From positions 1 to 64,000 of IMG/VR virus record IMGVR_UViG_3300025913_000030: DNA of 64,000 nt; one strand, written 5' to 3'. The first letter of the stretch is position 1. Every line of letters begins with the position of its first letter. The notes under the pieces were generated by a model. That model made no database searches, had not been told where the DNA came from, and saw only the letters and a list, made by a program, of their open reading frames with translations. Positions 7,770-20,838 of this stretch are shown here, in pieces. Source of the stretch: a virus. The translations under genes and the position numbers were made by a program.

Positions 7770-9521
7770 GTGACAGCAGTCGGCACCGTCCCACCGTCTG
7801 CCCGCGCCGAGGTCTCCGCCCCCGCAACCGGCTACCTCGCCGGGCAGAGCGCGGAAAACTTCGACCTCGAGGCCTACCTCGCCCGGTTCGACCCGAGGAT
7901 GCTCGCCACCCCCGAGGGCCGGCGCACCCTCACGCGCCTGGACCCGCTGCTCTGGGCCGTCATCTACTTCCGGCACCACCTCGTCGGCGAAGCGACCGGC
8001 GGCACGGTCGACTACGAGGAAGAAGACCTCGACTTCGACCCCGATCCTCTGGTTCCCGTCTCCCTCGAGGTCGCCCGCCACGCTGCGAAGCAGTGGCTTG
8101 ACAAGGTCACCTTCGCGGACGCGCACCTGGACTGGTGCCGGCAGGCGCGGCGCTGGATCATCAAGTCCAAGCGGCCCCGCCAGCACCGCGACGCCTACGT
8201 CGCGCCCCGCGAGATGGGCAAGTCCACCTGGTTCTTCCTGATCCTGCCGATGTGGGCCGCCGCCCACGGCCACAAGAAGTTCATCGCGGCCTTCTCCGAC
8301 TCCTCCGGCCAGGCCGAGACCCACCTGCAGACCTTCAAACACGAGCTCGACAACAACAAGCACCTGCGCAACGACTTCCCGAAGCTGTGCCAGCCGGCCG
8401 TCCGCAACCGCGGCGTCACCGCCTCGGACACCAAGGGCATGTACATCGCCGCATCCGGGTTCGTGTTCGCCGCCAAGGGCATCGACACCAGCTCGCTCGG
8501 CCTGAAGGTCGGCCGGCAGCGACCGGACCTCCTGCTGCTCGACGACATCGAGCCGGGCGAGGACAAATACTCCGAGTACCAGGTCGAGGGACGTCTCAAG
8601 ACCGTCACCGACGTCATCTTCCCGCTCTCCGAGTACGCCCGCGTCGTGATCGTCGGCACGGTCACCATGCCCGGCTCGATCGTCCACCAGCTCGTCAAGT
8701 CGGTGACCGAGGAACGGGAGGAGGCCGAGTCCTGGATCGCCGAGCAGAACATCCGCGTCCACTACTACCCGCCGATCGTCACCCGGGCCGACGGCACCGA
8801 GCGCTCGATCTGGCCGGCCAAGTGGTCGTTCGCGTTCCTCAGCGCGATCCGGCACACGCGCTCGTACCTGAAGAACTTCGCCAACTCGCCGCTCGGCGCC
8901 GACGGCGACTACTGGACGCTGGACGACTTCGCCTACGGCACGCTGCCCGCCACGACCAAGGTCCTGCTCTCCGTCGACCCGGCGGTCTCCACTGGCAAGA
9001 ACTCCGACTACACCGGATTGGCGATCGTGGCCTGGCAGCCGCCGGCCCAGCGCGCAGGCGCCCCGGCCGGGGACGCCGAGACGGTGCGCCGCCAGGTGGT
9101 CGGCAATCTCGGCCTGTGCGAAGTGCGCTACGCCGCCCAGGTCAAGCTGACCGGAGCGGCGCTGCGCACGAAGATCCTGCAGCTGCTCGAACAGCACCCC
9201 GAGATCGGCCTGGTCATCGTCGAGGACAACCAGGGCAAGGAGCTCTGGCTCGACATCCTGCACCATCTGCCGGTCAAGCTGCAGTGTTTCGAGCAGAGCG
9301 TGAAGAAGGAGGTGCGCGCGGCCGAGCTGCTCGCGCACTACCAGCGCGGCCGGGTCAAGCACGTCAAGCGCCTCGGCGCGCTGGAGGAGCAGATGGTCGC
9401 CTTCCCGAAGGCGAGCCATGACGACATGGTCGACGCGGTCGGCTCGGCGGTGTGCCGGTTCCTGCGACGCAAGCAGGCGAGCGGCCAGAAGGCATCCGGT
9501 CGCTCGCACTCCTACGCGTGA
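7770..9521 (+). CDS. terL: Terminase large subunit
   Basis: Walker A APREMGKS, Walker B LLLLDDIE, nuclease motifs SVDPA and HDDMVDA. Confidence 0.93.
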   Translation: MTAVGTVPPSARAEVSAPATGYLAGQSAENFDLEAYLARFDPRMLATPEGRRTLTRLDPLLWAVIYFRHHLVGEATGGTVDYEEEDLDFDPDPLVPVSLEVARHAAKQWLDKVTFADAHLDWCRQARRWIIKSKRPRQHRDAYVAPREMGKSTWFFLILPMWAAAHGHKKFIAAFSDSSGQAETHLQTFKHELDNNKHLRNDFPKLCQPAVRNRGVTASDTKGMYIAASGFVFAAKGIDTSSLGLKVGRQRPDLLLLDDIEPGEDKYSEYQVEGRLKTVTDVIFPLSEYARVVIVGTVTMPGSIVHQLVKSVTEEREEAESWIAEQNIRVHYYPPIVTRADGTERSIWPAKWSFAFLSAIRHTRSYLKNFANSPLGADGDYWTLDDFAYGTLPATTKVLLSVDPAVSTGKNSDYTGLAIVAWQPPAQRAGAPAGDAETVRRQVVGNLGLCEVRYAAQVKLTGAALRTKILQLLEQHPEIGLVIVEDNQGKELWLDILHHLPVKLQCFEQSVKKEVRAAELLAHYQRGRVKHVKRLGALEEQMVAFPKASHDDMVDAVGSAVCRFLRRKQASGQKASGRSHSYA

Positions 9522-11169: not shown

Positions 11170-12816
11170 ATGACCGTGGCCAGCCGAGCGGCGCGCGCTG
11201 CCAACCCGGACCTGATGGTCGGGCTGCAGCAGCTGGCCAACTCCCTGCCCGACTACCACCGCGCCGAAATGTATTACGAATGTACGATGCCTGAGTTCTT
11301 CGCGAGCATCAGGCTTCGACGGGCCCTGGAGCGCACAGGTGTCTCCTTCCGCTTCAACCTCGCCAGCACCCCGGTCGACACCATGGCCGACCGTTTGGAG
11401 ATCGCCTCCCTCACCTGCGCCGACCAGCATGTCGACGACGTACTGCAGGAGATCTGGGCGCACAACCTGATGGACCTGACGGCCGGAAGCCTGCACCTGC
11501 GCACAGGCGAATTCGGCGACGCGTACGTCATCGTCTGGCCCTCGGCCGCGGACAGCGACGACGATCCGGAGCTGGCCAACGACACCAACGACGCCGAGAT
11601 CCAACACAGCCGCAAGGAGCTGGCGACCCGCCGCCCGGACGGCGCCGCGGACGATGTCAACACCAAGGTAGACATCTTCTACAACTCGCCGAAGACGACC
11701 CGGATCATCTACGACGCGGAGAACCCACGCGTCAAGCGGTTCGCGATCAAGAAGTGGACCGAGCCCGGACCGCTGGGCACCGCGTCCAAGCCGCGCAACC
11801 GGGTCAACCTGTACTACCGGGACCGGATCGAGAAGTACATCTCGGCGCCCAACTCCAAGGGAAACCAGCTCAAGGACTGGCTGCTGTACGAGGACGACGG
11901 CGACGAGGGCTGGCCGATCGAGAACCCGTACGGCCAGATCCCCGTGTTCCACTTCAGGACCGACCTGCCCTACGGCACGCCCGAGCACCGCGCCGCCTAC
12001 GGGCCGCAGGACGCCATCAACAAACTGATCATCACGCACACCGCGACGATCGACTACCACGGCTTCCCGCAGCGCTACGTCCTGTCCGAGGCCGGCAACC
12101 AGTCCGACGAGCTGGCCGACTTCGACGCCGACGACGACATCAACCGGTTCGAGGACACCGGCCACGACTCGACACTGCGCAGCGGCCCCGGCGAGGTGTG
12201 GTGGCTCAACGGGGTCAAGCAGGCCGGCCAGTTCACACCACCGAACCCTGAGATCTTCCTCGCCCCGCTCGACACCTACATCCGGATGATGGCCCAGGTC
12301 ACCCGGACGCCGCTGCACTACTTCGACCCGCAGGTCTACTCCCGCCTGGCCCCGTCCGGAGAGTCGATCCGGGCCAGCGAGGTCCCGCTGCTGAAGAAGG
12401 TGCGCAAGCGCCAGATTAGCTACGGCTCGACCTGGCTGGAGGTCTTCGACTTCGCCCTGAAGGTCGCGGGCGTGGACAGCGACCCGGACATCGCGCTGCG
12501 CTGGATCCCGGCCGCCACGATCGACGACGCCGCCGGCTGGTCGATGATCCAGGCCAAACAGCAGGCCGGCGTCCCTGTGCGCCAGACCCTGCTCGAGGCC
12601 GGCTACGACCCGGACATGGTCGATTCCTGGCTGGTGAACGGTGAAGGCCTCGAGCAGCGCGTCGACCTGCTCGTCAAGATCGCCGCAGCGGCCCAGCAGC
12701 TGGGCACCGCGACCGGCTTCGGCGTCTTGGACGCGGCCGACGTCAACAAGGTGATCATGACCGTGCTGAACCTGAGCGACAGCTCCCACGAGGAACTCAC
12801 AGTAGGGACCGCCTGA
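11170..12816 (+). CDS. Portal protein (SPP1 gp6-like)
   Basis: Follows terL; RFNLA..VDT.ADRL, GDAYVIVW, NPYGQIPVFHF and QDAINK motifs; AGGAGG RBS. Confidence 0.9.
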   Translation: MTVASRAARAANPDLMVGLQQLANSLPDYHRAEMYYECTMPEFFASIRLRRALERTGVSFRFNLASTPVDTMADRLEIASLTCADQHVDDVLQEIWAHNLMDLTAGSLHLRTGEFGDAYVIVWPSAADSDDDPELANDTNDAEIQHSRKELATRRPDGAADDVNTKVDIFYNSPKTTRIIYDAENPRVKRFAIKKWTEPGPLGTASKPRNRVNLYYRDRIEKYISAPNSKGNQLKDWLLYEDDGDEGWPIENPYGQIPVFHFRTDLPYGTPEHRAAYGPQDAINKLIITHTATIDYHGFPQRYVLSEAGNQSDELADFDADDDINRFEDTGHDSTLRSGPGEVWWLNGVKQAGQFTPPNPEIFLAPLDTYIRMMAQVTRTPLHYFDPQVYSRLAPSGESIRASEVPLLKKVRKRQISYGSTWLEVFDFALKVAGVDSDPDIALRWIPAATIDDAAGWSMIQAKQQAGVPVRQTLLEAGYDPDMVDSWLVNGEGLEQRVDLLVKIAAAAQQLGTATGFGVLDAADVNKVIMTVLNLSDSSHEELTVGTA

Positions 12817-13007: not shown

Positions 13008-13204
13008 CCATGACCCGCAAGGCGCCTGCGCACGCATACGGCAACGTCAAGGGAGCGCGCTCCGTCCCGGCGATGAAGACCGACGCCCTCGGGCGCGCCA
13101 AGGCGAAGGCGCCCTCGGCCGCCGAGCCCGCCGGGCACGTCGTCGCACCGGCCGCGCCCGTGCGCCGGGTCACCGCCAAGACCATGGGCAAGCGCCTGAA
13201 GTGA
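13004..13204 (+). CDS. Small basic protein
   Basis: GTGA overlaps on both sides. Confidence 0.5.
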   Translation: MTMTRKAPAHAYGNVKGARSVPAMKTDALGRAKAKAPSAAEPAGHVVAPAAPVRRVTAKTMGKRLK

Positions 13205-14292
13205 CCTCCGACCCGACCGGGGGATCGGGCGCGCCTGAGTCCCCCGGTCCCGTCACCGGGGCCGTGTTCGCGGCAACCGCCGGCTATTCGGCCGCTCTGA
13301 TCGACCTGGAGGAGCAGGCGGCGCAAGTCGCCTCTGCTCCGCTGCGCGCCCGGATCGCCGAGATCCTGCGCCGCCTCACCGCGCTCTACACCTCTCTGGC
13401 CGGCTCCCCCGACGCACCGCTTCCGCCGCAGCACGCGGCGCAGCTGCTGACCGAGCTCGCTTCCGAACTGGGCTCGCTGCGCGGCATCGACCCCTCGCCG
13501 GTCGTCGCCGACTTCGCCTCCCGCGCCTATCACGCGGCCGTCGCCTTTTCCCAGGAGCAGCTCGGGCTGCTGGCCGTCGACCGCCTGCCCGGCGCGCTCG
13601 CCGACGACGCTCTGAACCAGGCCCTGGACTCGCTGCCCGGCAGCGTGGCCGAACGCATCGACGACGCGTTGCACTTCGCGCAGCAGTCCCTGGCCACGGA
13701 CCTGCGTTCCGCGGTCCTGCAGCCGGTCGCGAAGGCGAACCAGGCTGCGAACACAGCCGAAGCGGCGGCGCGCTGGGCGGTCAACCGGGCCGCCAACAGC
13801 GGCGCCGCCGACAGCGCGGCGCAGGCCGGGGCGTTCCTGCTCTGGGCCGGCGAGCCGACCGCGTGTGTCCACTGTGCCGCCCATATCGGCCACTACGTGC
13901 GCCCTGGCGACTCCTTCCCGCTCGGTCTCACCTTCGGTGACAGTGCCCTGACGCCGTGGCCGGACCCCGAGCGGCTCGACGGGCCGCCACTGCACCCGAA
14001 CTGCCGGTGCAGACTGATCCCGTGGCTCGGCCCGGTGGCGCTGCACCCCGTCGACACTGCGATCTACAACCGCCCCGGCCTGCAGAACCAGGTCGACCTC
14101 GCGGCGGCGATGCGCCGGGAGGCCAAGCGCGCGATCCTGCGCGGCTGGTCGCTGCCCAGCGAGTCGGAAAAGGTGCGGCTGCGCGCGGCGGACCGGCTGC
14201 TGCGCAAGGGGGCGGGGCTGCCGAAGACGGTCGAGGCACGGGCGCGCAAAGCGGTGCACGCCAAGCACTTCCCTGACAGACACATAAGATAA
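13201..14292 (+). CDS. MuF/SPP1 gp7-like head morphogenesis protein
   Basis: ACVHC and PPLHPNCRC motifs; follows the portal. Confidence 0.85.
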   Translation: MTSDPTGGSGAPESPGPVTGAVFAATAGYSAALIDLEEQAAQVASAPLRARIAEILRRLTALYTSLAGSPDAPLPPQHAAQLLTELASELGSLRGIDPSPVVADFASRAYHAAVAFSQEQLGLLAVDRLPGALADDALNQALDSLPGSVAERIDDALHFAQQSLATDLRSAVLQPVAKANQAANTAEAAARWAVNRAANSGAADSAAQAGAFLLWAGEPTACVHCAAHIGHYVRPGDSFPLGLTFGDSALTPWPDPERLDGPPLHPNCRCRLIPWLGPVALHPVDTAIYNRPGLQNQVDLAAAMRREAKRAILRGWSLPSESEKVRLRAADRLLRKGAGLPKTVEARARKAVHAKHFPDRHIR

Positions 14293-14350
14293 GCACTTTT
14301 GTGTACAGTTCTTGACAACGTCCCCGCTCTCCGTGATGGAGGAAACGAAC

Positions 14351-15076
14351 ATGCGCGACTGCCTCTTCGGCGACGCACCCCTGACCCTGCTCGGCGTGAC
14401 CGGTTCCGGGTTCCCCGTCTACGCCCTGGCCGGCGCCGAGCCGGACGACGAGATCGAGGTCGAGCCCGACGACGAGGGCGCTGAGACCGAGGTCGAGGAG
14501 GAGGGCGACGGCGGCGAATCCGGCTCGGGTGACGACGAGAAGGAGAAGCTGCGCGCCCAGTTGAAGAAGGCCAACGGCGAGGCGGCCAGGTACCGCCGCG
14601 AGCTGCGCGAGCTGAAGAAGCAGGCCACGGAGGAGGCGACCGAGGAGGTCGAGACCGCCGCGGAGGAGAAGGGCAGCGAGCTCACCCCCGCCCAGCTCAA
14701 GCGCGCCGTCGACAAGGCCGTGAAGGCAGCCACCGAGGCGGCCGAGACCAAGTACCGCAAGGTGGCGGTCAACGCCGCGGCGCAGTCCGCCTTCGTCAAG
14801 GCCGGCGCGAAGGCCGCGTCCGTCGGCAAGCTGGTGCGCCTGCTGGACACCGAGGACGTGGAGATCGACGCCGAGACCGGCGAGGTCACGTCAGGACTCG
14901 ACGACCAGATCGAAGCCCTCAAGGACGAGTTCCCCGAGCTGTTCGGTCCGGTCGAGGCGGCCAAGCCGAAGCCAAAGCCGAAGCGCGCCGCCGCCGCTCC
15001 CCGCCCCGAGGCCGAGCCGCAGCCCTTGAGCTCGGCCGAGAAGATCGCCGCGCAGCTCGGCATCGGCGCTCGCTGA
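14351..15076 (+). CDS. Capsid scaffolding protein
   Basis: Acidic N-terminal part, coiled coil ANGEAARYR, LKDEFPELF; GGAGG RBS. Confidence 0.85.
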   Translation: MRDCLFGDAPLTLLGVTGSGFPVYALAGAEPDDEIEVEPDDEGAETEVEEEGDGGESGSGDDEKEKLRAQLKKANGEAARYRRELRELKKQATEEATEEVETAAEEKGSELTPAQLKRAVDKAVKAATEAAETKYRKVAVNAAAQSAFVKAGAKAASVGKLVRLLDTEDVEIDAETGEVTSGLDDQIEALKDEFPELFGPVEAAKPKPKPKRAAAAPRPEAEPQPLSSAEKIAAQLGIGAR

Positions 15077-15077
15077 G

Positions 15078-15608
15078 ATGGACACCTCGGACAAGGTCGG
15101 GCAGTACGTCCTCGTCCGCACACGGGGCTTCTACCCGTCCGTCATCCGCTTCTTCTGCCTCAAGCGGCGCGGCTGGAAGGCCTTCTTCAGCCGCGCGTCG
15201 CGCTCCCGCTTCGACCACGTCGCCGTGGTCGTCGGGCCCGGCGGACAGATCGTCGAGGCCGAACCGGGCGGCGCGCGCCGATCCAACCTGTCCGAATATG
15301 ACGGGTACGAGCTCCGCTTCTCCAGCGACCCGCTCACCGACGATCAGCGCGCGAAGATCGTGGAGAAGGCCGACTGGTACGTCGACAACCACATCCCATA
15401 CGGCTGGACGGACATCGCCGGGCTCGCCGTCCGCTGCCTGGACTCGGACGACTACGTCCTGATCCGCCGGGCCGACCAACAGCGCGCCGCGATCTGCTCC
15501 CAGTTGGCCGCGGTGTGCGGCGAGTACGCGGGCGTGACGGCGTGGATGTGCGGGCAGCAGCTCGCGGCCGGGGTCACGCCCGCGATGATGGACGCGCGCC
15601 TCGGATGA
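15078..15608 (+). CDS. Permuted papain-like (NlpC/P60, YiiX/YebB-type) cysteine hydrolase
   Basis: His precedes Cys: FDHVAVV...IVEA...PYG...ICSQLA...VTP. Confidence 0.8.
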   Translation: MDTSDKVGQYVLVRTRGFYPSVIRFFCLKRRGWKAFFSRASRSRFDHVAVVVGPGGQIVEAEPGGARRSNLSEYDGYELRFSSDPLTDDQRAKIVEKADWYVDNHIPYGWTDIAGLAVRCLDSDDYVLIRRADQQRAAICSQLAAVCGEYAGVTAWMCGQQLAAGVTPAMMDARLG

Positions 15609-15997
15609 CGCTGCGCATCTCAACCCAGCTGCGGGGCCGGATCGTGCGCGACTGCCTGACACGGCGCCCGATCGAGGCCTGCGGCGTGGTCTCGGCCAAG
15701 GGGCGGTTCATCCCGCTGGCCAACGCCTCCGACGACCCGTCGCTGTTCTCCTTCCACCCCGAAGAACAGCTGCGCGTCTGGCAGGAGCTCGACGCGGCCG
15801 GCGACCGCGTGGACGTGGTCTACCACTCCCACCCCCGCACGCCGGCCGCCCCCTCCCGGACCGACATCGCATTCGCCGCGTACCCGGACGTGCACTACGT
15901 CATCGTCGGCCTGGCCGATCCGGACAACCCCGAGTTCCGGTCCTGGCACATCGAGGACGGCCAGGCGGACGAGGAAACCGTCTTATTCTGGTGTTGA
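15605..15997 (+). CDS. JAB/MPN+ (M67, Mec-like) metalloprotease
   Basis: EACG plus a complete JAMM motif YHSHPRTPAAPSRTD. Confidence 0.9.
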   Translation: MTLRISTQLRGRIVRDCLTRRPIEACGVVSAKGRFIPLANASDDPSLFSFHPEEQLRVWQELDAAGDRVDVVYHSHPRTPAAPSRTDIAFAAYPDVHYVIVGLADPDNPEFRSWHIEDGQADEETVLFWC

Positions 15998-16125
15998 CAA
16001 AAGAGCAGTGATACCTTAATACCGGCGCGGACAGGTATCCGCAGCCACGCTGGGTCCGAGATGGGCCGACCGCTTGGCCCGCGATGGGCCGAAACCCCAT
16101 CCGAACCCAGCGAAAAGGCCACTCA

Positions 16126-17157
16126 GTGTTCTGCGCCATTTCCGAGGCGCCGCTCAAGGCGCCGCGCACTGTCATCGGCTTCACCTCCCTCGGCCCCGTC
16201 TACGCCCTCGCGGGCGGCGCACGCGACGTGATGGACGCGTGGATCCCCGAGGAGTTCGACTCGCAGGTCATCATGCGGGTCAACCAGATCAGCGGCGTCG
16301 AGGCCCTCGGCTCGCCGGTCCCCATGAACTCCGACACCCGCTCCGTCCCGCGCTCCGCGGGCATCGGCGTCGACCTGGTCGCCAAGGGCGGCACCTACGC
16401 CGAGGACGTCTCCACCAACGACGCCGTCGTCCTGACCGCGCAGAAGTTCGGCAAGGCCGTCCGGATCGCGGAAGAGGACATCGACGACGCGATCGCCGAC
16501 GTCATCGCGACCAAGCAGAAGGACTGGGCGACCAGCTACGGCAAGGCGTTCGACAACGCCTGCCTCGCGATCACCGCCGCGCCCGGTGCCAACGTCCCGT
16601 TCGCCTCGGTGTACTACTCGCTGACCCAGAGCGACAGCGCGACCGGCTACACCGCGAACAGCAACCTGGTGCAGACCGGGACCGGCGGCACCACGTACAC
16701 CACGCTGTCGACCGCTCTGTCCAAGGTCGAGCAGGGCAACTACTTCGACATCTCGGAGATGGTGTGCATCGCGCACCCCACCTACCGCAACCTGCTGCGC
16801 GGCATCAAGGACAACAACGGCCGGCCGATCTTCCAGGAGAGCAACGCCGGATTCCCGGGCGGCGGCACCGCGTCCTCGCCGGACACGATCTTCGGCATCC
16901 AGATCCACTGGTCGCTCGGCGCGCGCACCTCGGGCGTCGTCAACTCGGCGCCGACCGGCAACGGCCTGCTGATCTTCGCCAACCGCAACTACATGATCGT
17001 CGGCCGGCGCTCGGGCCCCGAGTCCGTGTTCATCGACGGTCGCAACGGTCTCGCGGCCCTGACCGACGAGTCGATCCTCAAGATGCGCGCCCGGCGCGCG
17101 TTCGCGGTCGGCCACGAGATGGCCTTCTCGGTGCACGAGGACACCACCGGCGTCTGA
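16126..17157 (+). CDS. Major capsid protein (HK97 fold)
   Basis: WIPEEF, IKDNNGRPIF, TIFGIQI and LKMRARRAFAV motifs; genomic position. Alternative start at 16084. Confidence 0.9.
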   Translation: MFCAISEAPLKAPRTVIGFTSLGPVYALAGGARDVMDAWIPEEFDSQVIMRVNQISGVEALGSPVPMNSDTRSVPRSAGIGVDLVAKGGTYAEDVSTNDAVVLTAQKFGKAVRIAEEDIDDAIADVIATKQKDWATSYGKAFDNACLAITAAPGANVPFASVYYSLTQSDSATGYTANSNLVQTGTGGTTYTTLSTALSKVEQGNYFDISEMVCIAHPTYRNLLRGIKDNNGRPIFQESNAGFPGGGTASSPDTIFGIQIHWSLGARTSGVVNSAPTGNGLLIFANRNYMIVGRRSGPESVFIDGRNGLAALTDESILKMRARRAFAVGHEMAFSVHEDTTGV

Positions 17158-17739: not shown

Positions 17740-20700
17740 GTGACCGCGAACGGCGTCACCGGGGGCGACCCGACTAAGGTCAGCACGACCGGCGGCACCG
17801 TGACCGGCACGCTTGACCTCGCCGCGGCGTCCAACCCGTTGCAGATCCCTCACGGCGCACAGGCCGGCTACGTCTGGACCGACACCGACGGCTCCGGCAA
17901 CGGCGCCTGGCAGCCGTCACCCGGCGGCACGCCCGCCACCACCGTCCAGGCCGGAACCTCGTACGGGACGGCCAGCGCGGTCGGAACCCTCGGCTCCTTC
18001 GCCCGGGAAGACCACCAGCACGGAACACCGGGCCTCACCTCGGTCGCCCCCGCGACGACACTCGGCATCGGCACCGCGGCGGCAGCGGGGACCGCGACCT
18101 TGCCGGCTCGAGCTGACCACGTCCATCCGACAGCGGCGGCTGGCGTGCCCGGCTCATCGGCGGTCGGGGATGTGGCAGCAACCGGCAGCGCGAGCACCTT
18201 CGCGGCCAGCGACCACAAGCACGGGCGCGAGTCATTTGGTGCGGTCGCTGGTCAGACCGTTTACGGCGCCGCGTCCGCGAACGGTGTCGCAGCCACGCTC
18301 GCGCGCAGCGACCACACCCACGGCACGCCGTCCCTGACGACTACCGCGCCTGCGACGACGCTCGGCATCGGAACCGCTGCGGCGCTTGGTACGGCTACTC
18401 TTCCCGCGCTCGCCGATCACGTCCACCCGATGGCCGCAGCCGGGGCACCGGCCGCCTCCGCCGTCGGCGACGCGGGCGTGACCGGGGTCGCGGTCACCTT
18501 CGCGGCCAGCGACCACAAGCACGCACGGGAGGCCTTCGGCGCACCCGGCAATTCGGCGGTCGGAGACGCCTCGGCGGCAGGTGTCGCGGTCAGCATCGCC
18601 CGATCCGACCACACCCACGGACGCGAGTCCTTCGGCCCCGCCCCTGCCACCACCCTGGGCATCGGCCAGGCCGCTGTCGCGGGCACTGCGGCGACCCCTG
18701 CGCGCTCCGACCACGCCCACCCCCTGGCGGCGGCCGGCGCTCCCGCCTCCTCCGCGGTGGGCGACACCGGAGTGACGGGAGTCGCGGTCACTTTCGCGGC
18801 CAGCGACCACAAGCACGCACGGGAGTCTTTCGGTACGCCGGGTGCGTCAGCCGTTGGCGACGCGGCAGGAGCCGGCGTAGCGACCTCTGTCGCCCGATCC
18901 GATCACACCCACGGACGCGAGGCCTTCGGCAACGTCACCGCACTGGCCGCGTTCGGCACCGCGAGCAGCAACGGCACCGCGGCCACCGTCGCGCACAGCG
19001 ACCACGTTCACGGCGCGCCCTCGCTTCCCACCGGAAACACCTCCACCGCGGGCATCGTCCAGATCGACAACACGGCCGCCGACTACCAGCCCCTCGGCCC
19101 GGCCGCCCCCGGGTCCATCGGCAAGGTCGCTGACGCCGGCCACGTCCACCCGATGCAGCCGCACATCTTCCCGGTCAGCGCCTACGGCGCCAAGGGCGAC
19201 GGACAGCTGGACAACACCGGGTCGATGACCAGCGGCTCGGGCGCGCTCACCCTGACCAACGCGAAGTTCGCCGCGGGCGACGTCGGCAAGCTCATCGCGG
19301 TCAAGGGAGCCAAGAGCACCGGGGACACCAGCCTGGTCGGCACGATCACTGCGTTCACCAGCAGCACCCAGGTGACGGTGTCCGTCAACGCCACGGCCAC
19401 GGTCACCGGAGCCCAGGTGATGTGGGCCACCGACGACACGTCCGCGATCCAGTCCGCGATCGCCGCCGCGAACTCCTACGCCGTCACCCACAACCTCGCC
19501 GAGATCTACTTCCCGCTGCCCGCAGGCCTGTTCTACGGCGTCGGCGGCGCGCTGAAGAACTCCGACGGGACCAACTCGGTCTTCAACAGCCAACTGACCG
19601 TCCCCGTCAACTCCGAGCAGAACAACGGCGTCACGCTCGTCTTCCGCGGCGCCGGAGACTCCGGCCAGACCAGGTACTGGAACTCCGACTACCCCGTGTG
19701 GTCCGGCAGCGCGATCCAGTCCTTCGGCGTCTTCACCACCGCGCTCAACCAGTCCAACAACATCGCCGCGGGCGGCAACCCGAGTGTCCTGGGAGGACCG
19801 ACCGGGAAGTTCAACTACGGCGTCCTGCAGGGTGCCAACACGACGCCGACGTACTCGAACACCGCCCTCGTTCTGCAGGACATCACGATCCTGACGACGC
19901 ACTCCGCTTCCGGCTGGACGTACTCGGCCGTGAACGCGTTCGGGGTGGCGCGGTTCCACGCGAGGAATTTCTGCTACGGCACCAACGGCGTGGTCCAGTT
20001 CTACAAGAACTCCCCCGGACTCGGGGACTACTCCACCGTCTCCACCCTCTCCGGCGGCCTGTCCATCGGTGTGTTGATGCCGAGCAACGGCAACAACGCG
20101 TCGAACTACCTGCAGAACGTCGTGTGCAATGGCGGGTACACCTACGCGTTGTACGCGACCGAGCACACGGTCGGCAACGACGTCACGCTCCTGTACTCCT
20201 GGAGCGGCCTGTGCCCGGTCGGCAACTACTCGGACTCCGCCTCGGGCGGCGCCGTCTCCGCGCTACATGCCATGTACTTCGACCAGATCTGCGTGGAGTC
20301 ATGCACATACCACCTCAACATCATCGGTACCGGGCAGTCCGCCACCGGACCGATCATTCATGCGGTGCTGGACACCGAGGGCACGGTGCAGTTCCGCGAC
20401 GCGCAGTCGGCCGGCGCGAACACGGGCGCAGGCCTGGCCGCTGCTCTCGGTGAGATCAGGCTCGTCGGCTCGCCGTCGACCATCACGATCCAGACCGGTA
20501 CGGGCGCGGGAGGCCTGGGCACGGGGCTGCGCATCATCAAGGAGCAGAACCTGCCCGGCGTGCCGAGCTCCGGTATTCCGGCGTTGGTCGACGGGACGGC
20601 GGTATGCAACACGTTGTGGCGCCCGGCGACGGTCTACCTCTCCGGTGGCACCAACGTCACGACGGTGGCCGTCTCCCGTCTCGCGGGCGGCGTGAACACC

Positions 20701-20838
20701 GTTGCCGTGAGCAACGTCATCAGCCAGGCCGCCGGTCCGATCCCCGCGAACACACCGGTCAGGTTGGGCCCAGGCCAGTGGATCAAGGTGACGACCTCGG
20801 CGGGCACGCTCCCCACCGCCGTCTGGGTCCTGGACTAA
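17740..20838 (+). CDS. Fibre/spike protein with DHxH repeats and a pectate-lyase-like beta-helix
   Basis: 12 (D/G)HxH repeats in an Ala/Thr/Gly-rich stalk, then VSAYGAKGDG...DDTSAIQSAI...IYFP. Confidence 0.75.
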   Translation: MTANGVTGGDPTKVSTTGGTVTGTLDLAAASNPLQIPHGAQAGYVWTDTDGSGNGAWQPSPGGTPATTVQAGTSYGTASAVGTLGSFAREDHQHGTPGLTSVAPATTLGIGTAAAAGTATLPARADHVHPTAAAGVPGSSAVGDVAATGSASTFAASDHKHGRESFGAVAGQTVYGAASANGVAATLARSDHTHGTPSLTTTAPATTLGIGTAAALGTATLPALADHVHPMAAAGAPAASAVGDAGVTGVAVTFAASDHKHAREAFGAPGNSAVGDASAAGVAVSIARSDHTHGRESFGPAPATTLGIGQAAVAGTAATPARSDHAHPLAAAGAPASSAVGDTGVTGVAVTFAASDHKHARESFGTPGASAVGDAAGAGVATSVARSDHTHGREAFGNVTALAAFGTASSNGTAATVAHSDHVHGAPSLPTGNTSTAGIVQIDNTAADYQPLGPAAPGSIGKVADAGHVHPMQPHIFPVSAYGAKGDGQLDNTGSMTSGSGALTLTNAKFAAGDVGKLIAVKGAKSTGDTSLVGTITAFTSSTQVTVSVNATATVTGAQVMWATDDTSAIQSAIAAANSYAVTHNLAEIYFPLPAGLFYGVGGALKNSDGTNSVFNSQLTVPVNSEQNNGVTLVFRGAGDSGQTRYWNSDYPVWSGSAIQSFGVFTTALNQSNNIAAGGNPSVLGGPTGKFNYGVLQGANTTPTYSNTALVLQDITILTTHSASGWTYSAVNAFGVARFHARNFCYGTNGVVQFYKNSPGLGDYSTVSTLSGGLSIGVLMPSNGNNASNYLQNVVCNGGYTYALYATEHTVGNDVTLLYSWSGLCPVGNYSDSASGGAVSALHAMYFDQICVESCTYHLNIIGTGQSATGPIIHAVLDTEGTVQFRDAQSAGANTGAGLAAALGEIRLVGSPSTITIQTGTGAGGLGTGLRIIKEQNLPGVPSSGIPALVDGTAVCNTLWRPATVYLSGGTNVTTVAVSRLAGGVNTVAVSNVISQAAGPIPANTPVRLGPGQWIKVTTSAGTLPTAVWVLD

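Follow-up and report, generated by a model that had tools for sequence, protein, structure and literature searches.

The scaffolding protein and the major capsid protein of an actinobacteriophage known from IMG/VR record IMGVR_UViG_3300025913_000030 both begin with a leader of about 30 amino acids (aa), and comparison of the leader profiles indicates that the two are homologous and represent one module. The DNA analyzed, referred to below as the window, comprises bases 1-64000 of this complete 74.7-kb phage record with direct terminal repeats. Between the two leader-bearing genes lies a gene for a zinc metalloprotease of the JAMM (MPN+) type, here called JAB, which its position in the protein tree identifies as a mec gene captured from an actinobacterium. 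We propose, rating the idea a little short of an even chance, that the leader is a propeptide mimicking the tail of the sulfur carrier CysO and that it is cut by a Mec+-type JAMM, which would be phage-borne here and host-borne in the relatives that lack JAB. More tentatively still, we suggest that a lineage of actinobacteriophages matures its head by having a deubiquitinase-fold JAMM/Mec+ enzyme, either that of the host or a captured copy, clip a miniature ubiquitin-like (Ubl) tail leader. An original prediction, made from the letters of the window, had suggested that the head may be matured by JAB itself.

A common leader on scaffold and capsid

The scaffold reading frame opens at ATG 14351, with GGAGG 8 nt upstream, and its product starts MRDC...GSGFPVYALAGA/EPDDE (leader tail PVYALAGA/EPDD; a slash marks the predicted scissile bond throughout). 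The capsid frame, taken from GTG 16126, reads VFCAIS...SLGPVYALAGG/ARDVMDAWIPEE. The GTG start is backed by relatives, among them the capsid genes of loci L009-L022 (about 80% identical), in which a strong Shine-Dalgarno (SD) sequence (CCAGGAG or AGGAGG) is followed by an M-F-x start that yields a leader of 33-34 aa. The parallel leaders of about 30 aa that the original prediction had described were confirmed at 29 and 31 aa, as was the sequence PVYALAG that they have in common (14414-14434 and 16195-16215). Profiles of the capsid leaders and of the scaffold leaders align end-to-end with the cut sites in register (hhalign probability 98.2%, E value 6.3e-14). At the DNA level the two copies of PVYALAG are identical at 19 of 21 positions and both differences are synonymous; constraint therefore acts on the protein. 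A degenerate pattern of the 8-aa core was found at these two sites only in the six frames of the 64-kb window.

Across all leaders the Gly at position -2 is invariant and position -1 is always Gly or Ala. The leader has the shape of a short beta-hairpin followed by a tail h-x-A-h-A-G-[G/A], and a terminal strand with a Gly-Gly tail (-1 being Gly or Ala) after it, as in ubiquitin-like beta-grasp proteins, is present. At 29-34 aa the leaders are shorter than a complete beta-grasp fold (about 70-110 aa), and searches with Pfam gave no ThiS match on either the capsid or the scaffold. The mature capsid N-terminus is almost invariant and the leader drifts much faster; because it evolves faster than the mature N-terminus, as propeptides do, the leader appears propeptide-like. 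A reading of the leader as a signal peptide or lipobox was ruled out by its charged hairpin turns (e.g., RKDGR) and by the absence of Cys at +1.

The leader-bearing module is kept in about 20 relatives from IMG/VR and GenBank. Capsids with the leader are those of L005-L024, Wentworth, Yara and Dryad, while scaffolds with the leader are those of L007-L023 and L028-L030, ending for example in ...PTILGYRSDGHPIHQIAGG/SGD and ...PIGYLPSGKPVYPMIGG/SED. Leaderless capsids (Zuko, KimJongPhill, OscarSo and L025-L033) have their own SD directly before M/V-ARNT.EAWIPEE, and this start corresponds to the exact residue (+1) after the leader GG. The module is separable: L028-L030 carry it on the scaffold only, and Zuko has it on neither protein. 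In Wentworth-like phages the capsid leader is clear, and the scaffold has no more than a vague ...ADGG/.

The capsid leaders of Wentworth (L001), Dryad (L036) and Yara (L037) are about 45-50 aa long, their hairpin and GG being preceded by an additional helix-like stretch at the N-terminus (...WAARKAEFAAKRAATSVW...), and the scaffolds of these three phages have a different N-terminal segment ending ...W[HY]ADGG/ before an acidic run. In the Wentworth record the capsid is labelled hypothetical and the note on the MuF gene reads 'major capsid protein'.

The JAMM enzyme and its cellular relatives

The product of the JAB gene scores 74.6 bits against the Prok-JAB profile PF14464 (cut-off 25; 74.3 bits in the genome scan), which belongs to the JAMM/MPN+ metalloproteases of MEROPS family M67. 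Its JAMM motif had been described as intact, and the residues concerned (E24, H74-S75-H76, S84 and D87) are indeed invariant in 7 phage and 45 cellular sequences. Relatives in the PDB are stand-alone JAMMs (2KKS and PfJAMM1, 5LDA), and the nearest phage matches are PHROG tail families; a protein homologue search started from JAB extended no further than close relatives. Searches of the head-module open reading frames (ORFs) with Pfam and PHROG bore out the earlier remark that no HK97- or ClpP-type prohead protease is seen: no domain of the HK97, ClpP or S49 type was found in them, and no canonical prohead protease (S78, S77, S49 or ClpP) between the portal and capsid genes, the whole genome not having been scanned for these families.

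Cellular relatives of JAB are 35-52% identical and come mostly from Actinomycetota. In 34 of the 45 cellular loci an ORF for a CysO/MoaD-like protein ending ...GD.VTILPAVAGG follows directly, which agrees with the earlier suggestion that JAB is kin to Mec+ enzymes cutting Ubl-like tails. About half of these loci encode an extension after the carrier GG (AVAGG/AKNCGAI, /ASK, /A or /QDPTAS). The phage JABs are nested inside the actinobacterial Mec+ group. They occupy three places in the free tree, and a single grouping is not rejected (approximately unbiased test, p 0.68), so that independent captures cannot be claimed. A gene of the ThiS/MoaD family (PF02597) gave no match at E<=1 in the complete 74.7-kb genome; thus no conventional substrate is encoded for the phage JAB. 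Homologues of the phage JAB (E<=1e-5), usually in one copy, are present in 265 of 301 sampled Actinomycetes genomes, a tally that takes in seven unpublished genomes (G022, G031, G037, G039, G043, G050 and G270), and the residues of the JAB groove are conserved in type.

Among the cellular loci L046-L067, many freshwater actinobacterial (Nanopelagicaceae-like) CysO homologues have a conserved AxNCGAI extension after the Gly-Gly. Its conservation implies obligatory trimming by the adjacent JAMM, and the released heptapeptide possibly has a conserved function.

Model of the leader-enzyme complex

Modelling of the peptide-enzyme complex, which the original prediction had suggested, was carried out for JAB, capsid residues 1-60 and Zn, with controls, and placed the leader tail in the JAB active site. 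The complex reached an interface score (ipSAE) of 0.86 compared with 0.00 for the best control, a mark attained by 58 of 80 solved complexes and by 2 of 110 mismatched pairs, although the result may reflect likeness to solved JAMM-Ubl complexes, a likeness that is the hypothesis itself and no proof of binding. The runs agreed in at least 91% of contacts and the partner had a predicted local distance difference test (pLDDT) value of at least 56. Modelled contacts involve leader residues 25-36 (VYALAGG/ARDVM) and, in JAB, strand 46-50, E24, H74, H76 and S84-D87. The leader tail is thus predicted to sit in the catalytic groove with the scissile bond at the zinc site.

Proposed mechanism

According to the scheme proposed here, scaffold and capsid would each be made with a homologous N-terminal propeptide of about 30 aa, the tail of which would imitate the last strand and Gly-Gly tail of sulfur-carrier (ubiquitin-like) proteins of the CysO/MoaD type. 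A Mec+-family JAMM zinc metalloprotease would bind this tail in the way that it binds its natural substrates and would cut the ordinary peptide bond after G-[G/A], leaving a mature capsid that begins with ARDVMDAWIPEE and a scaffold that begins with EPDDE. The captured mec gene would act from within the scaffold operon, translationally coupled to the gene of a permuted NlpC/P60 hydrolase, while leader-bearing relatives without JAB would depend on host Mec+, which is nearly universal in Actinomycetes. We envisage that host Mec+ clips the leader, that some phages took up the gene, and that the window clade wired it behind its scaffold gene. In short, what we infer is cleavage itself, a JAMM as the enzyme and host Mec+ as the stand-in where JAB is absent.

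If this is true, prohead processing would have its first metalloprotease and its first case of Ubl-tail mimicry, so that the head-maturation proteases would be joined by a further enzyme class and by another kind of substrate mimicry. This would also be the second phage use of a housekeeping host protease, after 80alpha and Prp, and the first with later acquisition of the enzyme. A function would be provided for the stand-alone JAB genes that carry the annotation 'metalloprotease' in Streptomyces phages, structural work on this phage group would gain corrected capsid starts and mature ends, and mec would be predicted as a host dependency factor for many Streptomyces phages. Moreover, Mec+-type JAMMs would accept a 30-aa peptide instead of a folded carrier, with possible use as a tool for tag removal.

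Distribution of JAB and evidence against the proposal

Among 50,697 phage records, a stand-alone homologue of the window JAB was found in Dryad only, which is itself leader-bearing. The window clade, L007, G002 and Dryad have a phage JAB; no leaderless relative that was examined has one. Loci L005 and L006 have both JAB and the 176-aa hydrolase, as in the window, and L007 has JAB without the hydrolase and keeps both leaders. The check on co-occurrence that had been suggested therefore gave a divided answer: this type of JAB recurs within the leader-bearing group, but many leader-bearing phages lack it.

Several results weigh against the proposed mechanism. PF14464 was absent from whole-record scans of the leader-bearing genomes G003 (100% complete), G004 (97%) and G001 (75%) and of Wentworth, and a tblastn search with JAB found no match in seven further cultured relatives of Wentworth. 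G003 and G004 carry leaders on both scaffold and capsid. In L009-L022 the capsid gene comes immediately after the scaffold gene, with no cassette between them. Where JAB occurs outside the window clade it can be remote from the head genes, lying about 25 kb away among small ORFs in G002 (100% complete) and being gene 95 in Dryad, far from the leader-bearing capsid gene 16. Because leader-bearing relatives without JAB exist, an obligatory role as leader protease is excluded for the phage JAB, which is dispensable for whatever the leader does. The claim that JAB matures the head is partly supported, by enzyme type, boundary and complex model, but not for JAB as the leader protease, given G003, G004 and Wentworth. 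A leader common in phages without JAB was the finding that the original prediction had said would refute it and point to a host protease, and the host enzyme pointed to is most plausibly the host's own Mec+ JAMM.

The mimicry is also short. Leader tails reading A-[LIV]-A-G-G/A equal CysO tails, with several (L013 and L017 among them) having the exact AVAGG/A; their weight-matrix score is unexceptional in a GC-rich genome. A weight matrix of CysO tails ranked the capsid site 68th of 116,597 six-frame windows at k=6, and worse at k=8 and k=10, so that the sequence mimicry is not significant on its own. The likeness extends over about 5 residues and CysO's invariant Pro is missing. Position -1 is Ala in the window scaffold and in both leaders of L007, whereas natural JAMM substrates have Gly, and the leader has no globular beta-grasp domain, usually a further contact of JAMMs. 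Literature searches returned no proteomic data on removal of the leader from procapsids or virions. We place the mechanism below an even chance because the mimicry is short, -1 is sometimes Ala, a beta-grasp body is missing and cleavage is something that we infer; the many relatives that retain the leader but have no JAB gene leave a new route of head maturation unproven.

The 176-aa hydrolase

Both genes between scaffold and capsid had been called peptidases. This held for JAB; for the 176-aa product of the other gene (15078-15608) it is plausible, since a model of the protein matches the permuted NlpC/P60 fold, which also includes amidases and acyltransferases. The protein has no Pfam match, and the PF05708 profile gave none to it at E<=10, matching only one distant homologue and a minority of the Atlas cluster members. 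The model, built from an alignment of 33 homologues, has a pLDDT of 86.8. Foldseek related it to 3KW0, a 'cysteine peptidase' (TM-score 0.61, probability 1.0), to YiiX (2IF6) and to PLAAT/LRAT proteins (0.99), with TM-scores of 0.5-0.6. His47 and Cys140 are invariant in the 33 homologues, and the His precedes the Cys, as in permuted NlpC/P60 proteins.

At least 63 other homologues of this hydrolase in IMG/VR occur in unrelated actinophage contexts with no link to the head module. The homologue loci of the family are L086-L148, including L126 (G004). In Streptomyces phages of 110-130 kb, homologues are annotated as 'peptidase' or 'enoyl-CoA hydratase-like'; the latter label looks wrong given the modelled fold.

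Alternative explanations

The leader could be a propeptide or tag for another protease, for example a host one unrelated to JAMMs, with the pair of C92-like hydrolase and JAB being an accessory cassette that landed after the scaffold gene. Such a cassette might reverse host ubiquitin-like conjugation defences or adjust CysO-dependent cysteine synthesis. We regard this as rather unlikely. In its favour, the leader is widespread without JAB, JAB stands among small non-structural genes in G002 and Dryad, the C92-like gene is found in 63 other viral loci unlinked to this head module, and the cassette is missing from relatives with 80%-identical capsids, in which capsid follows scaffold directly. 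Weighing against it are the controlled complex model, with the scissile bond at the JAB zinc site, and the near confinement of this type of JAB, among phages, to the leader-bearing group. The phage lacks a Ubl gene of its own, and JAB matches the PADLOC defence models only faintly (E value 0.011). In addition, no other protease is visible in the head module of a relative without JAB (G003, locus L021), where only two proteins with ADP-ribosyltransferase domains were found.

It is less likely again that the leader stays uncleaved as an assembly element, for instance one that helps the two proteins to co-fold, pairs their beta-strands or binds a partner of both, such as the portal or the MuF protein. 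The scaffold N-terminus of 80alpha is needed for assembly while its cleavage is dispensable (PMC5744158), the leader is on the scaffold only in L028-L030, and the likeness of capsid and scaffold leaders is slightly higher within genomes than between them (7.7 versus 6.8 of 18 positions), a marginal difference (permutation p 0.05). A retained element fits poorly with leaderless homologues that start precisely at +1, with the invariant Gly at -2 and the Gly/Ala at -1, which form a cleavage-site signature, and with a leader that diverges much faster than the mature N-terminus. Removal of the leaders by the permuted NlpC/P60-fold cysteine hydrolase, in place of JAB, appears very improbable. Double-glycine leaders of bacteriocin systems are cut by papain-like C39 peptidases, and the phage leaders resemble them in ending GG or GA; the hydrolase has its invariant His and Cys, and its gene is translationally coupled between those of scaffold and JAB. 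Against this, L007 keeps both leaders and JAB without the hydrolase gene, homologues of the hydrolase are scattered in unrelated phage contexts, and most members of its fold family are amidases and acyltransferases with small or lipid substrates; the hydrolase is not C39. Cleavage by a Mec+-type JAMM is the reading that we retain.

Head module and neighbouring features

The window has a G+C content of about 68%, and its head genes (Table 1) are similar to those of Streptomyces and Microbacterium siphophages; the capsid is 45-51% identical to capsids of Streptomyces phages (Zuko, Wentworth, Yara and others). A MuF-like gene is kept in all relatives. The gap between the scaffold stop and the hydrolase start is 1 nt, and the JAB start overlaps the hydrolase stop (ATGA).

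Table 1. Coordinates of the head-module features in the window.
Feature	Position	Strand	Basis
Terminase	7770-9521		
Portal	11170-12816		
Two small ORFs	between portal and MuF-like gene		
MuF-like minor head protein, upstream neighbour in the head module	13201..14292	+	weak PF04233 (E 0.0014), PHROG head-protein matches
Scaffold leader, 29 aa, ending ...GSGFPVYALAGA, then acidic stretch from EPDDE	14351..14437	+	homology to capsid leader
Scaffolding protein, 241 aa	14351..15076	+	PF06810 E 1.4e-15, phrog_194
Predicted permuted NlpC/P60-fold (YiiX/C92/LRAT-like) cysteine hydrolase, 176 aa	15078..15608	+	fold model
JAMM/MPN+ (Mec+-type) Zn-metalloprotease (JAB), 130 aa	15605..15997	+	PF14464 E 7.4e-21
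Promoter-like TTGACA-N17-TACCTT and conserved 5' untranslated region before the capsid gene	15990..16125	+	alignment of 10 relatives
Capsid leader, 31 aa, ending ...SLGPVYALAGG; predicted scissile bond G31/A32 (16218/16219)	16126..16218	+	
HK97-fold major capsid protein, 343 aa including leader	16126..17157	+	PF05065 E 1.4e-15, phrog_10 2e-24

The promoter-like sequence overlaps the JAB stop codon, and the core of the 5' untranslated region (GCGGATGCGGGTGG ... GACCnGGATnGGTC in relatives) is kept before every capsid gene of the phage group, as seen in an alignment with L006-L022. Rfam gave no match in 14200-16400, and a consensus promoter scanner did not call the TTGACA-N17-TACCTT sequence. 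The segment may be a late promoter together with a regulatory or processing element for the capsid mRNA.

A 1032-aa ORF (17740-20838) comes directly after the head genes. Its product, in which many Gly/Ala-rich repeats with recurring SDH(K/T)H motifs precede a globular C-terminal portion, is probably a fibre or decoration protein, and its place in the structural module is unusually early. At the position between portal and MuF-like genes, where the window has only its two small ORFs, relative G003 encodes two proteins (L021:42-1412 and L021:1549-3642) with C-terminal ADP-ribosyltransferase domains (PF03496, E value about 1e-16), which are probably MuF-associated ejected cargo.

Comparison with known systems

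Neither a JAMM head protease nor this leader turned up in literature searches. To our knowledge, the head-maturation proteases described so far are of the serine type and belong to a few folds, apart from one host cysteine protease, Prp. Like the canonical prohead proteases (HK97 gp4/S78, T4 gp21/S77, lambda gpC/S49 and ClpP-like), the proposed system would remove an N-terminal segment from capsid and scaffold; the canonical enzymes differ in that they are serine proteases, are packaged into the prohead and take off large delta domains or scaffolds. The two hydrolase folds also occur together in the structural-gene region of lambda, in gpK (MPN/JAB and NlpC/P60), but there as fused domains of one tail-tip assembly protein with an unpermuted NlpC/P60. 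Here they are products of two separate genes in reverse order within the head module, and JAB resembles cellular Mec+ more than it does gpK.

The candidate enzyme has its family and catalytic motif in common with Mec+/CysO, QbsD/QbsE, CxnF/CxnE and DRJAMM/MoaD-MoaE, and the reaction proposed is likewise cleavage of an ordinary peptide bond after ...A-V/L-A-G-G with release of the downstream part. DRJAMM reportedly cuts a MoaD-MoaE fusion. JAMMs cut linear bonds after the carrier GG in the QbsD/QbsE and CxnF/CxnE pairs (PMC5925218), and HvJAMM1 cuts linear fusions even without a di-Gly (PMC8832034). In systems of the Mec+/CysO type the natural substrate is a complete beta-grasp protein of 90-110 aa and the upstream product is the one that is used, whereas in the phage a 30-aa leader lies upstream of the predicted cut and the products of use would be capsid and scaffold, downstream of it; in contrast to the Mec+/CysO system, the phage has no cysO or cysM partner.

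The closest parallel is Staphylococcus phage 80alpha, for which the original prediction correctly described a motif shared by scaffold and capsid and cut by a single protease; that protease, however, is host Prp and not a phage enzyme, and the shared leader is L27-like (PMC5744158). In both systems capsid and scaffold share a short N-terminal motif that ends at one site (predicted here), that motif mimics what a housekeeping protease of the cell naturally cuts (proposed here), and a dedicated prohead protease is missing from the head module. Prp, a cysteine protease, cuts FF/A, and the protein mimicked is L27, while the candidate here is a JAMM and the mimicked element the Gly-Gly tail of CysO/MoaD. 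Cleavage is proven for 80alpha and proposed for the present phages, some of which carry their own copy of the enzyme. The idea is thus new within a known theme, the removal of a propeptide from capsid and scaffold by a co-opted cellular protease.

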